Shown: piece by piece, positions 29,843 through 45,480 of the stretch
How the letters are laid out: every line of letters starts with the position of its first letter
Numbering within the stretch: the stretch's first letter is position 1
DNA from: Candidatus Nanohalarchaeota archaeon
GTDB taxonomy: Archaea; Nanohalarchaeota; Nanosalinia; Nanosalinales; JAFCCC01
DNA length: 64,000 nt
Reading direction: 5' to 3'
NCBI GenBank assembly: GCA_017610385.1
Contig: JAFCCC010000003.1
Location: 9,170-73,169 of the forward strand
Program-made: the position numbers and the translations under genes
The notes under the pieces: model-generated
The model's input: the letters and a program-made list of their open reading frames with translations, nothing else
The model's database searches: none
What the model was told of the DNA's origin: nothing

Positions 29843-30091
29843 TTATGCCTCCCTATGTAATCTAGCTAGTAATTTTTCTGAACCAGTATCCACCTGATAT
29901 GCCCCGCCAATCATTTTGGCACCACAAGACTTACAAATCCAAATGCCTGCAGCATATCTTTTAAACGCCAACTTTCCGCATTTTGGACATTTCTTTTTTG
30001 AGTTCTGTAACTTACTTACCGTAATAACAGCATCTCTAACTTTTTTCCCATACTTAGATCCAAACCGTCCAGCACCTTTCTTTTTTGCCAT
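29843..30091 (-). CDS. rpl37ae: 50S ribosomal protein L37ae
   Basis: AGRFGSKYG, CPKCGK, GIWICKSCG, GGAY. Confidence 0.95.
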   Translation of the reverse strand: MAKKKGAGRFGSKYGKKVRDAVITVSKLQNSKKKCPKCGKLAFKRYAAGIWICKSCGAKMIGGAYQVDTGSEKLLARLHREA

Positions 30092-42049: not shown

Positions 42050-42063
42050 GATAAAAAGAACTA

Positions 42064-42500
42064 TTATTTTTTATAATAACTCTTGATAGCTTCCTTAATC
42101 GCATCTGGTCCACAGTTTACCCAAATTTTTTTAATAGCTTCATCAAAATCCATCCATTTATATCCTATATGCTCCTTTTCTCATAGTTTAACAGCTCCAG
42201 AAATGTAGTCACATGCATAAGCGACAGCGCGAATTTTTAAAAAACCATCTTTGACGGGTTTTCATCCCAATAAACTTTAAGAACTTTTCCAAGAATTTTT
42301 ACTTTTATTCCTACTTCCTCATCAACTTCTTTAAGTACCGCTTGCTCTTCTGTCTCTTCGAAATGCATGGCACCTTTAATAAACTCCCAACCTGTTTCCT
42401 AATCTTCTCCCCGTCGATCAAACATGAGAATTTTATTTTCTTTAAAAACAATAGCAGTTATAGCGTGTTGCATTCCGTCAATTATTTTGTTATTTTCCAT
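42064..42500 (-). pseudogene. NUDIX hydrolase pseudogene
   Basis: Manual translation MENNK..DRRGED*ETGWEFIKGAMHFEETEEQAVLKEVDEEVG.. (NUDIX box) with an in-frame TAG, one frameshift near 42260 and an in-frame TGA. Confidence 0.85.
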
Positions 42501-42681: not shown

Positions 42682-43740
42682 TCAGCGAATGACTTTTAAG
42701 CCTAAATCGCTGATATTTGTGATTTTAGTAGGACTGTCCTCTAATTTTCCAAGTATGTACGGAGAATTAACTCCTGTGATAATTGATATTACTTGGATTC
42801 GTCCTTCTAATTCTGGATCAACTCTAGCGCCCCAGATAACTTGAGCTTGTGCATCTAGTTTTTCAATGACTGCTTGACCTACGTCATTGATTTCTCTTAA
42901 GGTCATGTCATTTCCTCCGGAAATATGTAGTAAAGCGCCATTTGCTCCTTCGATGTCCACATCTAATAACGGATTTGTCAACGCTTCAACAATCGCTTCT
43001 TTACCTCTGTTTCTCGTATTAGATTCACCATATCCTACAACTGCTACTCCACCAGAGTGCATAACTGCTTTTACATCAGCATAGTCTAAATTGACTAAGG
43101 ATGGTTTGGAAATAGTTTCTGTAATTCCTTTAATCATGGTTGTAACTAATTCATCCGCAACGCCAAAGGCTTGTTCTAATGGTAAATCTCCTGCAATACC
43201 TAACAAACGGTCATTTTCAATTACAATTACTGTGTCAGCGTATTTTCTTAATTTATAAAGACCTTCTTCTGCTTTTGATATTCTGGCGCCTTCAATTTTA
43301 AATGGCATCGTAACGCTAGCAATAACAATACAATTTTCTTCCTTAGCAATTCGTGCGACTACTGGAATCGAACCTGTACCGGTTCCACCACCCAAACCAC
43401 ATACTACAAAGACCATGTCAGCTTGTTTAAAAAGTTCCTTTAATTCTGAACGACTTTCTTCCGCGGCTTTAGCACCAATTTCAGGATGCCCTCCAGCACC
43501 CAAACCTTTAGTTAGGTCCTGTCCAATTAATATCCTTTTATCTGCACTTGAAATTAATAAATGTTGTTTATCTGTGTTTATTGCGACGGTTTCTGCGCCA
43601 GCAATTCCTTTTCGATACATTCTCGTAACGATGTTGTTACCGCCGCCTCCGCAGCCCACGACGAGAATTCTCGCATCTTTAACATCAGCAAAATCTTGCT
43701 CATGATTATTTTCTATGACATTTCGAATGAATGATTCCAT
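42682..43740 (-). CDS. ftsZ: Cell division protein FtsZ (probably FtsZ2 type)
   Basis: GCGGGGNN, INTDKQHL, GLGGGTGTG, NLDYAD. Confidence 0.97.
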   Translation of the reverse strand: MESFIRNVIENNHEQDFADVKDARILVVGCGGGGNNIVTRMYRKGIAGAETVAINTDKQHLLISSADKRILIGQDLTKGLGAGGHPEIGAKAAEESRSELKELFKQADMVFVVCGLGGGTGTGSIPVVARIAKEENCIVIASVTMPFKIEGARISKAEEGLYKLRKYADTVIVIENDRLLGIAGDLPLEQAFGVADELVTTMIKGITETISKPSLVNLDYADVKAVMHSGGVAVVGYGESNTRNRGKEAIVEALTNPLLDVDIEGANGALLHISGGNDMTLREINDVGQAVIEKLDAQAQVIWGARVDPELEGRIQVISIITGVNSPYILGKLEDSPTKITNISDLGLKVIR

Positions 43741-43810
43741 ATTATCTCCTCTGATTTATATTTTGTAGGAACATAATGCTTTTTTAATACTGAAAGCAAA
43801 TACATCTATA

Positions 43811-44010
43811 GAACTAGATTTAAGCGCCAACTTAAACTGGTTTCATTCGATATTACTTCGAATACTTGAGAATTCAAATACATACAATATGGATTTACTC
43901 GATAACAACTTACTCTTAGTTCGCCAAAACTAAGTTTTGTTTATAAAGTTGTTTTGTAGCGTATGTCGCCAAACATAAGTGACTACAAATGAGTTAATTT
44001 ACAATCCATA
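43811..44010 (-). ncRNA. Candidate structured RNA leader of ftsZ with three UUGGCG-loop hairpins
   Basis: CGCCAA (+ strand) at 43825, 43922 and 43967, each the loop of a different stem; enclosing helices 43888-43900/43991-44010. Confidence 0.65.
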
Positions 44011-44024
44011 ATTAGTTATTTCTG

Positions 44025-44042
44025 AATATATAAAGATTTTCA
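44025..44042 (-). promoter_or_regulatory. BRE/TATA promoter for the ftsZ leader
   Basis: Minus strand GAAAATCTTTATATATT matches other promoters in the window (e.g. GAAATCTTTTTATATA at ~25890). Confidence 0.6.
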
Positions 44043-44199
44043 TAACCTCTTTTTCTTATGGAGAAATTCTGCTCCAGTGGAAATGTGGGTTCTGTTCAAA
44101 AGAAATAAAGGTTATTCCATAGGAAATAATGTAGATCAAATTCTAAATATTAGTGACAATAAATTAACTTTTTTAATTGTGCGGGTTTAATTAGTTATT

Positions 44200-45480
44200 A
44201 TGAAAATTGCAGATATTGAAAAAATGAAAGAAGGCCAAAAAGTTGAGCTTAAGGGCTGGATATACAGACAAAGAGCTTCTAAAAATGTTGCCTTTATTGT
44301 TCTAAGAGATTCAACAGGAATAATTCAGATAGTTTATGGAAAAGAAGTTGGAAATAAGATTTTTGAAAAAGCATCCACAATTTTAATTGAAAGTTCTATT
44401 AAGATTAAAGGCATAATTAAAAAAGATGCACGTGCTCCTAGCGGATTTGAAATCGAGGGAACTGATTTTGAAATTATTAATAAAGCTGAACGATTTCCAA
44501 TTACAAAAGATCAAAGTACTGAATTTTTATTAAATATGAGGCATCTATGGATTAGATCCCAAAAATTAACTAATGTTTTTAAAATTAAAGATACTCTATT
44601 CTATGCTGCTCGAGACTACTTACGAAAAGATGGCTGGTATGAAACACAGAGTCCTATGATTACTGCTTGTGCAGGGGAGGGTGGTTCTACATTATTTAAA
44701 ATGGATTACTTTGGACACAAGGCATATTTAGCTCAAACAGGTCAATTATATTCTGAAGCACTCATTTTTGCTCTAGAAAAAGTTTACTGTTTTGCTCCCT
44801 CTTTCAGAGCTGAAAAATCTAAGACAAGAAAGCATTTAACTGAATATTGGCATTTAGAGCCAGAAGGTGCTTGGATAACTCATGAACAAAACATGAAAAT
44901 TCAAGAGGGATTAATTTCTTATATTTGTCAAACGGTTGCAAAAAAGTATCCGAAAGAACTTTTGGCATTGGGCCGGGATCCAAAAGACCTTTTATTAGTT
45001 AAACCGCCTTTTAAAAGAATTACGTATGAAGAAGCGATTAAACAATTGCAAAAACGTGGTAGCAAAATAAAATATGGTGAAGATTTTGGAGTCGCAGAAG
45101 AAAAATTATTAATGAAAGGAGAAAAAGCGCCCATGTTTGTTGAGCGATGGCCTGCTGAAATGAAGGCGTTTTATATGAAAAGAGACCCAAAAGACAAGAA
45201 AATTGTTCTTTGTGATGATTTATTTGCTCCAGAAGGATACGGAGAAATTATTGGAGCTAGCGAAAGAGAAACTGATAATTCTATTCTAATTAAAATGCTA
45301 AAGAAAGAAGGTGCAAATTTAGATGATTATAAATGGTATTTGGAACTAAGAAAATTTGGATCAGTTCCGCATTCTGGATTCGGCGTTGGAATGGAAAGAG
45401 TTCTTAGTTGGATCTGCAAATTAGATCATATTAGAGACGCGATTCCCTTTCCACGATTAACAAACAGATTTTATCCTTAG
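44200..45480 (+). CDS. asnS: Asparaginyl-tRNA synthetase
   Basis: OB domain, FRAEKSKTRKHLTEYW, GEIIGASERE, FGSVPHSGFG. Confidence 0.93.
   Translation: MKIADIEKMKEGQKVELKGWIYRQRASKNVAFIVLRDSTGIIQIVYGKEVGNKIFEKASTILIESSIKIKGIIKKDARAPSGFEIEGTDFEIINKAERFPITKDQSTEFLLNMRHLWIRSQKLTNVFKIKDTLFYAARDYLRKDGWYETQSPMITACAGEGGSTLFKMDYFGHKAYLAQTGQLYSEALIFALEKVYCFAPSFRAEKSKTRKHLTEYWHLEPEGAWITHEQNMKIQEGLISYICQTVAKKYPKELLALGRDPKDLLLVKPPFKRITYEEAIKQLQKRGSKIKYGEDFGVAEEKLLMKGEKAPMFVERWPAEMKAFYMKRDPKDKKIVLCDDLFAPEGYGEIIGASERETDNSILIKMLKKEGANLDDYKWYLELRKFGSVPHSGFGVGMERVLSWICKLDHIRDAIPFPRLTNRFYP

Follow-up and report, generated by a model that had tools for sequence, protein, structure and literature searches.

The stretch of DNA analysed here (hereafter, the window) comprises 64,000 nucleotides, G000:C3:9170-73169, of a 788-kb archaeal genome that is assembled in 18 contigs, has a G+C content of 32%, and is 93.5% complete. 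In the window, a 459-bp spacer separates ftsZ on the minus strand from the divergent asnS on the plus strand, and this spacer contains an array of three hairpins that share the loop UUGGCG on the ftsZ strand. The array, whose anatomy, conservation, stem covariation, motif orientation, and single copy per genome are described here, is a real, conserved, and apparently undescribed ftsZ control module in DPANN archaea. The source genome is the sole member of its family among the species compared, and the nearest relatives of the FtsZ encoded in the window (approximately 70% identity) are found in metagenome-assembled genomes labelled Nanohaloarchaea.

On the plus strand, the hexamer CGCCAA (UUGGCG on the ftsZ strand) occurs at 43825-43830, 43922-43927, and 43967-43972, with each copy forming exactly the loop of a hairpin (Table 1); the arms that flank the three loops are unrelated in sequence (tttaag/cttaaa, cttagtt/aactaag, and tatgt/acata, respectively). 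Hairpin 2 has an outer stem in which aacaactt (43904-43911) pairs with aagttgtt (43946-43953), and hairpin 1 has one in which tttgtagc (43953-43960) pairs with ctacaaa (43983-43989). The loops, stems, outer extensions, and closing arms, as well as a B recognition element with TATA box (BRE/TATA) and a Shine-Dalgarno (SD) sequence, had all been proposed in an earlier sequence-only reading of this DNA and were found here within 1-2 nt of where that reading had placed them; its remark that G-U pairs in the 43811-43844 stem favour the plus strand agrees with the finding that hairpin 3 is longer on the plus strand only, where two G-U pairs extend it to 43811-43843. Folds of both strands also predict the multibranch closing helix around hairpins 1 and 2 that had been described, but the transcription start site (TSS) predicted for the sense transcript, near 44003, would leave the 5' arm of this helix (44003-44010) off the transcript. 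Overall, the folding energy of 43741-44042 is unremarkable and constitutes weak evidence (z = -1.15 for the ftsZ strand and -1.98 for the plus strand). Neither a tRNA nor a match to the signal recognition particle (SRP) RNA or RNase P RNA models was found in the ftsZ-asnS intergenic region; archaeal SRP RNA and RNase P RNA are located on contigs C13 and C6, respectively, both outside the array region, and the sarcin-ricin-loop motif, used to locate 23S rRNA in view of a possible mimicry of its P-loop by the array, had no match in the assembly.

Table 1. Features of the ftsZ-asnS region, in window coordinates
Feature	Positions	Strand	Evidence
ftsZ coding sequence (352 aa) for one of the genome's two FtsZ paralogues	42682..43740	-	Pfam Tubulin and FtsZ_C; NCBIfam ftsZ equivalog, 405 bits
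SD sequence GAGGAG, 5 nt before the ATG	43746..43751	-	sequence; AGGAGG-type box at the same place in most relatives
A/T-rich box ACAAAAUAUAAAU, counterpart of the conserved AAAATATATTTTG of relatives	43754..43766	-	module comparison, 33 loci
Proximal BRE/TATA (cataatg + cttttttaata), pointing into the array	43772..43789	+	strict BRE+TATA regular expression, antisense match at -47
Box GUUCUAUAG, corresponding to the array-closing UUCUAAG box conserved in relatives	43806..43814	-	module comparison
Hairpin 3, loop UUGGCG at 43825-43830, stem 43819-43824 with 43831-43836	43818..43837	-	sequence, folds, genome hairpin scan
Small hairpin attcga/tcgaat, 7-nt loop without the motif and without comparative support	43845..43863		sequence, folds
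Possible closing helix around hairpins 1 and 2, tatggatt (43888-43895) with aatccata (44003-44010)	43888..44010		folds of both strands
Hairpin 2, loop UUGGCG at 43922-43927, inner stem 43915-43921 with 43928-43934	43904..43953	-	sequence, folds, genome scan
Hairpin 1, loop UUGGCG at 43967-43972, inner stem 43962-43966 with 43973-43977	43953..43989	-	sequence, folds, genome scan
Distal BRE (GAAAAU) and TATA (CUUUAUAUAU) toward ftsZ, predicted TSS near 44003	44026..44041	-	sequence; equivalents in relatives
asnS (asparagine-tRNA ligase), divergent neighbour	44200..45480	+	NCBIfam asnS equivalogs above cut-off; synteny conserved

As a bare hexamer, CGCCAA shows no enrichment in the window (19 copies versus 12.8 +/- 3.7 expected, with 8 of 100 shuffles reaching 19). 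A perfect flanking stem of at least 4 bp, by contrast, accompanies only 5 of the 234 CGCCAA copies in the 788-kb genome, and 3 of these 5 fall within the 150 bp of the array. A genome-wide census, limited to loops of 5-7 nt and stems of at least 5 bp, yielded 4972 hairpins, among which at least three with the same loop occurred within 250 bp at only 3 places; one of these is the ftsZ array, while the hairpins of the other two clusters have identical stems, recur with a 61-bp period, and look like repeats. Hairpins with a 61-bp period and identical 9-bp stems and loops were recorded at C9:8047-8169, C12:17-194, C13:131972-132033, and C11:141142-141203, and resemble CRISPR arrays or tandem repeats. 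For the ftsZ array itself, classification as a dispersed repeat, a miniature inverted-repeat transposable element, or a CRISPR was ruled out, as there is one array per genome and the stems differ between units; chained copies of the motif were found solely upstream of ftsZ, both in the source genome and in 9 others. A further pair of CGCCAA copies at 29905 and 29966 was examined and is not a repeat. The second FtsZ paralogue of the genome (379 aa; G000:C13:80613-81750, plus strand; locus L190) is not preceded by a G-rich array, and a peptidyl-prolyl isomerase-like coding gene ends approximately 50 nt upstream of it.

When the 459-bp intergenic DNA was searched against 41 related genomes, it matched only the genome from which the window comes; 160 ftsZ loci from DPANN archaea were therefore gathered by means of the FtsZ protein. 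Among these loci, arrays of 2-8 G-rich motifs with an invariant UGG or GG are found 60-350 nt upstream of ftsZ, always with the G-rich sequence on the ftsZ strand, and the motifs mostly form hairpin loops of 6-7 nt on covarying stems. Hairpins with exactly the loop UUGGCG, on unrelated stems and on the sense strand, occur 90-300 nt upstream of ftsZ in 8 further loci (L077, L079/L132, L082/L137/L138, and L115/L119); 21 of the 23 UUGGCG hairpins outside the window's own locus are located upstream of ftsZ, with only 2 elsewhere in the loci, and no other non-palindromic hexaloop is as common as UUGGCG in the full set of loci. The loop type is uniform inside a leader and differs by lineage, with UUGGCG, UUGGGC (in loci labelled Nanohaloarchaea), UGGGCA, CUUGGGA, UUGGAC (7 copies in L131), CUGGACA, CUGGUAA (in a locus labelled Micrarchaeum and others), and CUGGGCA represented, for a consensus of Y-U-G-G-N-N-(A). 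At the array position, many Aenigmatarchaeota-type loci carry instead 2-8 unpaired direct copies of GGGUUU, GGGUUA, or GGGCUA.

Several counts support this distribution. A GC-containing 5-mer recurs at least 3 times in 45 of 130 unique upstream regions (a result matched by at most 2 of 200 shuffles), and all 45 of these 5-mers have GG, and none CC, on the ftsZ strand. Hairpins of the type U[U/G]GGC number 57 in 60 kb of upstream sense sequence, as compared to 49 in the remaining sense sequence and 43 in the whole antisense strand, in 865 kb, which corresponds to an approximately 16-fold higher density upstream of ftsZ than elsewhere. With regard to the stems, 10 of 15 pairs in orthologous CUGGACA-type double hairpins (6 loci) stay paired through changes on both sides, and the constant loops on covarying stems that had been proposed for the window are conserved in relatives. 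Pooled hairpins are 92.6% paired as compared to 49.1% in shuffles, although only the outer pairs are informative here since these hairpins were chosen for stems of at least 4 bp. Of 27 pooled hairpins, 24 are closed by a U-A pair. Outside ftsZ upstream regions, a covariance model built from one hairpin yielded no match with E <1 in 937 kb, and its matches upstream of ftsZ are the model's own training set. In a tree of 142 FtsZ proteins, arrays appear in at least 4 separate clades. Searches of Rfam gave nothing credible in the window or in the loci of 10 relatives, and a literature search, largely of journals open without subscription, found nothing on such an ftsZ element, in agreement with the suggestion that the leader had not been described.

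The array is flanked by promoter elements whose arrangement is also conserved. A strict, fixed BRE+TATA regular expression was run over 131 upstream regions; sense matches fall mostly between -325 and -200 (with a peak at -225 to -200 and frequent matches also at -325 to -250), while antisense matches form a sharp peak at -75 to -50, where 44 antisense matches compare with 4 sense matches. The sense BRE/TATA recognized at this locus by the sequence-only reading has a canonical equivalent just upstream of the array in most lineages; in 27 loci, the median distance from it to the first motif core is 44 nt. Measured from the 3' end of the TATA box, the median distances to the first and last motif are 44 and 42 nt, respectively, or 20-30 nt where the motifs are unpaired, and the structured units therefore begin about where the TSS is expected. 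Our TSS predictions use the approximately 23-nt TATA-to-TSS spacing of the Pyrococcus furiosus consensus, which places the BRE at -36 to -32, the TATA box at -30 to -23, and the last A of the TATA box 23 nt before the TSS (PMC6640164). The order of the module is kept across lineages and runs from an A/T-rich, palindrome-like box (AAATATATTTTC) through the BRE+TATA toward ftsZ, the array, and the UUCUAAG box to a second TATA followed by a conserved CATTTCG, AAAATATATTTTG, the SD sequence, and the ATG. Read on the opposite strand, the second TATA and CATTTCG become CGAAATG-CTTTATATA, a canonical BRE-TATA aimed back into the array, and box GUUCUAUAG of the window sits at the predicted start (near 43813) of the plus-strand transcript from the proximal TATA.

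Array-less relatives have a single promoter-like element, the sense BRE/TATA, located 70-230 nt before the ATG, which makes it plausible that ftsZ was ancestrally driven by the distal promoter. The second conserved TATA, 40-50 nt before the ATG, may serve a short-leader ftsZ mRNA and/or an antisense RNA. In the window, this proximal element may fire also toward ftsZ, as bidirectional archaeal promoters do, and box ACAAAAUAUAAAU could be the site of a factor or else the DNA melted at a proximal sense promoter, together with its TSS. The leader of approximately 265 nt that had been proposed is close to the approximately 260 nt implied by the distal promoter. A TATA-like sequence, CTTTATAAA, with an A-rich 5' flank is also present in the internal loop of hairpin 2 (43936-43950), with matches to the promoter expression at -213 and -216, and may represent an internal promoter or chance.

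Additional sequence elements were observed on the asnS side of the module. A further conserved box, CGCCTTTCAC...TCAC, followed approximately 25 nt later by GTATTTAAA, is found between tRNA-Asn/asnS and the array in L010, L014, L017, L029, L072, L075, and L092; on the asnS strand, the two resemble the promoter and transcript start of the tRNA-Asn/asnS unit. Between the distal ftsZ promoter and asnS of the window, there are two dyads on the plus strand, at 44073-44084 (TCCAGTGGAAAT, then GTGGGT) and at 44116-44127 (TCCATAGGAAAT), which resemble the consensus of the origin recognition box (ORB); they lie within a 19-nt inverted repeat (44042-44060 with 44097-44115), and L148 has two ORB-like dyads as well, 514 and 606 nt before ftsZ. 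The dyads near the array may be Orc1/Cdc6 sites close to ftsZ. Better ORB-like pairs (TCCAATGGAAATCAAGGGGT) are found at C13:131714 and C13:131761, approximately 2 kb from the only Cdc6_C match, and these probably mark the true replication origin. The array itself was considered as an archaeal replication origin and rejected, as its motifs lack the TCCA..GGAAA dyad and no skew switch occurs at 44 kb.

An RNA structure that functions on one strand normally tolerates G-U but not A-C pairs. The stems of the array hairpins are almost purely Watson-Crick, with 29 G-U versus 25 A-C pairs, and a stricter count over 100 unique hairpins (773 pairs) gave 11 isolated non-Watson-Crick pairs of G-U type, 15 of A-C type, and 18 others; given this lack of bias, the wobble test does not fix the functional strand. 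Such symmetry is compatible either with hairpins that fold on both strands or with a constraint at the DNA level. One alternative is that the array is a DNA operator or upstream regulatory array, in which the oriented G-rich repeats between the two TATA boxes are recognised by a transcription factor, or by a protein that binds cruciforms or single strands, and this factor controls ftsZ together with the divergent asnS, gatCA, or tRNA-Asn unit. The Watson-Crick-only stems agree with this, as do the plain direct repeats of some lineages, the conserved synteny with Asn-tRNA genes, and the position of the array between two TATA boxes, each with an outer A/T-rich box, which is reminiscent of divergent promoters that share a control region; ribbon-helix-helix factors have, moreover, been reported to control archaeal division genes. 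We nevertheless consider an operator unlikely: a binder of double-stranded DNA needs no covarying inverted repeats around each site, the spacing is irregular and not helically phased (gaps of 45 and 97 bp in the window, and of 55 and 32 bp in L082), and the BRE-like boxes on the outer sides of both TATA boxes predict inward rather than outward transcription. We regard action at the RNA level as more likely than action at the DNA level.

A second alternative is that the functional RNA is that of the plus strand, i.e., a transcript from approximately 43813 to a T-run at 44050-44054 with CGCCAA (NCCA-like) loops, which would serve the Asn-tRNA genes as a long leader or small RNA. A canonical antisense-oriented BRE/TATA stands at a fixed place, hairpin 3 has its extension on this strand only, and asnS, gatCA, or tRNA-Asn lies in this direction in many loci; the plus-strand RNA also folds better, with 43808-44060 retaining the three hairpins and the multibranch (z = -2.24). 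However, the upstream gene is unrelated and co-directional with ftsZ in several loci with arrays (L082, L137, and L138, where it encodes a helix-turn-helix protein), asnS in the window has, as had been pointed out, its own TATA-like box (seen here approximately 25 nt before its ATG), a separate promoter-like box lies nearer to tRNA-Asn in Aenigmatarchaeota-type loci, and the YUNR signature is found on the ftsZ strand only, so that we regard a plus-strand RNA of this kind as very unlikely.

Under the YUNR rule, loops of this type adopt a U-turn and serve rapid pairing of an antisense RNA with its target. As in cis-antisense kissing-loop control, the hairpins of the array are kept on both strands and one partner presents YUNR/U-turn loops: the loops start with UUGG or CUGG, and UUGGCG, UUGGGC, UUGGAC, CUGGACA, CUGGUAA, and CUGGGCA all conform, as does UGGGCA if the closing U is counted. 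Our preferred reading, which we hold tentatively, is that the array is a leader RNA control module with U-turn loops, to which an antisense RNA from the opposing promoter pairs, a multivalent factor binds, or both. The distal BRE/TATA directly upstream would transcribe the array toward ftsZ, yielding the long leader, while the second BRE/TATA, 40-50 nt before the start codon, would direct transcription back into the array. The pre-organised G-rich loops could then pair rapidly with the antisense transcript, which would be fully complementary and carry C-rich, CCA-type loops; as a result, the long ftsZ transcript would be repressed or processed, or the proximal promoter would be interfered with. 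The loop consensus resembles an anticodon loop, and stem sequences may vary provided that pairing is kept; stems that are almost purely Watson-Crick would be anticipated where both strands have to fold. In addition, the loops would probably be read by a multivalent trans factor (protein or RNA), because every loop in a leader is identical. We infer both transcripts, their ends, and the regulatory outcome from the sequence. A complement of the loop in cis was sought in the leader and the first 1.3 kb of ftsZ (35 loci), and none was found beyond scattered coding matches; as for a trans partner in the source genome, a single further UUGGCG hairpin has a stem of at least 5 bp (C13:110189), and it was rejected, as it lies inside a coding region.

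A number of points weigh against this preferred reading. Both TSSs, sense and antisense, are predictions, and it may simply be that ftsZ is transcribed mainly from the proximal TATA, with a short leader. According to the P. furiosus study, BRE-TATA-BRE elements fire in both directions, archaeal TATA boxes often being bidirectional, and many of the resulting antisense RNAs are regarded as noise (PMC6640164). The minimum-energy fold of the sense leader (44006-43738) lacks hairpins 1 and 3 (z = -1.25). In addition, a cis-antisense partner is complementary by construction and hence explains neither the identical loops nor the invariant UGG, the missing G-U tolerance fits a DNA-level constraint equally well, and the Aenigmatarchaeota-type motifs (GGGUUU, GGGUUA, and GGGCUA) are not in hairpins, which means that kissing between hairpins is not a universal mechanism.

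A further alternative, for which the sequence-only reading had already suggested repeated protein-binding sites as in CsrB/RsmZ, is a multivalent protein platform on the sense RNA, following the logic of CsrB/RsmZ or TRAP. Here an RNA-binding protein would recognise (Y)UGGNN in loops or in unpaired A/U-rich RNA and so determine how stable the long ftsZ transcript is or how well it is translated, or would itself be titrated by the RNA, with the motif drifting by lineage along with the protein. This agrees with loops that are identical per leader and different between lineages, with the multiple copies per array (3-8), with the prevalence of the U-A closing pair, with members of the motif family that are also unpaired in A/T-rich spacer sequence, as is GGA for CsrA, and with extra single-stranded copies between hairpins (e.g., 6 GGCG in L079). 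On the other hand, neither a candidate protein nor a conserved gene for an RNA-binding protein nearby was found; CsrA (PF02599) had no match in the 93.5%-complete genome although control genomes matched, and the loops of this array are UUGGCG and not the GGA type of CsrA targets, with GGA occurring only in UUGGAC and CUGGACA lineages. A single target locus per genome would also be unusual for a dedicated RNA-binding regulator, and stems without G-U tolerance are atypical of an RNA element on one strand. We view a protein platform of this kind as rather doubtful.

The sequence-only reading had further proposed that the loops act as a T-box-like sensor, in which UGGN pairs with the NCCA-3' end of uncharged tRNA-Asn with G at position 73 (G73), thereby linking tRNA charging to division. 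UGG is indeed the one invariant of all hairpin-loop types, the tRNA-Asn of the source genome ends in ...GGC-G73, such that UGGCG is complementary to C72-G73-C74-C75-A76 once CCA is added, and synteny with asnS, gatCA, and tRNA-Asn is conserved. Yet the N of the loop is C, G, A, or U depending on the lineage, while G73 is constant in 9 of 9 readable tRNA-Asn genes, including those of UGGA, UGGG, and UGGU genomes; these nine are the source genome's own, those of the genomes of L131, L085, L125, L115, and L137, and genes inside L014, L029, and L021 (two further tRNA-Asn genes, in L185 and L188, were unreadable), and together they cover the UUGGCG, UUGGGC, UUGGAC, CUGGUAA, and GGGUU types. The base before GGG also varies in the unpaired arrays, and 3-4 bp in a simple loop would bind weakly. 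Stem I, a specifier, and an antiterminator were not found; a cmscan run over 43000-45000 (E up to 10) returned 3 chance-level matches and no T-box, and no T-box was found in the loci of 10 relatives at E up to 1. With a varying loop N and a constant G73, and with neither T-box parts nor a complement in cis, a T-box-like reading is not supported, and we consider it extremely improbable. Separately, we observed that no encoded CCA follows any tRNA 3' end shown in the source genome, that 37 tRNAs are present genome-wide once introns are allowed, many of them intron-bearing (including two tRNA-Trp with introns of 167-177 nt), and that a 112-nt tRNA at 1114-1225 of the window (minus strand), with an Rfam match, was missed by ARAGORN at default settings and presumably bears an intron.

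The relevance of the asnS neighbour, which had been suspected from the window, extends beyond coincidence, as asnS, gatC-gatA, or tRNA-Asn is found upstream of ftsZ in many DPANN loci. Specifically, asnS (at least 45% identity by tblastn) is located upstream on the opposite strand in 37 of 160 ftsZ loci, gatC, often with gatA, occupies the same upstream position in 21 of 160, and a tRNA-Asn gene is found between asnS and ftsZ in 3 of 10 loci scanned (L014, L029, and L021). In the source genome, AsnRS is present and GatC was not detectable; its nearest relatives have gatCA at that place. The synteny of ftsZ is with Asn-tRNA formation, whichever pathway is used. One could envisage a checkpoint specific to DPANN archaea in which cell division is tied to translation capacity, with the array as its core and FtsZ synthesis following tRNA charging. 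The genes for Asn-tRNA(Asn) formation (asnS, gatCA, and tRNA-Asn) and ftsZ would be kept head-to-head as their transcripts overlap across the array, and the U-turn UGG loops or their CCA-type complements, which are like tRNA 3' ends, would be read by CCA ends or by an enzyme that handles them. We put this forward as a highly speculative idea with little probability of being correct.

On the other side of ftsZ, a decayed NUDIX-hydrolase gene was noted 3' of the coding sequence (42050-42500, minus strand), in which a NUDIX-box-like stretch, GAMHFEETEEQAVLKEVDEEVG, is parted from the N-terminal portion by an in-frame TAG and a later frame change.

We know of almost nothing on how FtsZ levels are set in archaea, especially in the tiny, host-dependent DPANN archaea. 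The parts of the module described here are well defined, comprising two promoters, U-turn loops repeated identically in an array, and a box that closes it. The module stands upstream of one ftsZ paralogue in genomes labelled Nanohaloarchaeota, Woesearchaeota, Micrarchaeota, and Aenigmatarchaeota; it thus provides a tangible entry point to the control of division in organisms that are difficult to cultivate. Loops that are uniform per leader and change by lineage provide a natural covariation experiment for finding the partner, and the conserved proximity of ftsZ and the Asn-tRNA genes suggests that translation and division may be linked, which was not expected.

Among known systems, the plasmid cis-antisense kissing-loop systems include CopA/CopT of R1, RNA I/RNA II of ColE1, and FinP/traJ. 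The module resembles them in having a leader with several hairpins, YUNR-type loops, an opposing promoter, and stem pairing on both strands, and differs in being archaeal and chromosomal, in preceding a division gene, in the identity of the loops within one leader, in the unpaired repeats of some lineages, and in that the antisense RNA is here only predicted. The guanidine-II riboswitch (mini-ykkC) consists of tandem small hairpins with identical ACGR loops. Tandem hairpins with identical conserved loops, covarying stems, and variable linkers are shared with this riboswitch, whereas the module has another loop sequence and size, 2-8 units, unpaired variants, and no Rfam match. As in the CsrB/RsmZ RNAs, whose GGA loops are bound by CsrA, many short GG-containing motifs are placed in hairpin loops or single-stranded stretches of one RNA, but the motif is UGGNN rather than ANGGA, it is fixed upstream of ftsZ and probably cis-acting, and it has no Rfam match. 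The T-box riboswitch (RF00230) shares the UGGN element and a genomic link with genes for aminoacyl-tRNA synthesis; unlike it, the module has no Stem I, specifier, or antiterminator, its N does not covary with the discriminator, and it is archaeal and located before ftsZ, on the strand opposite asnS. Finally, the module can be compared to the archaeal bidirectional BRE-TATA-BRE promoters, as described for P. furiosus (PMC6640164). The proximal element of Aenigmatarchaeota-type loci, a palindromic GAAAxCC-TTTATAAA-GGxTTTC, is of this kind and is predicted to give sense and antisense starts approximately 50 bp apart, as in that type. Unlike in those promoters, the BRE on the antisense side is here the better conserved one, across phylum-level distances, and the predicted antisense start coincides with a conserved box that borders an array which is itself conserved, making it less likely that the antisense transcript is noise only.

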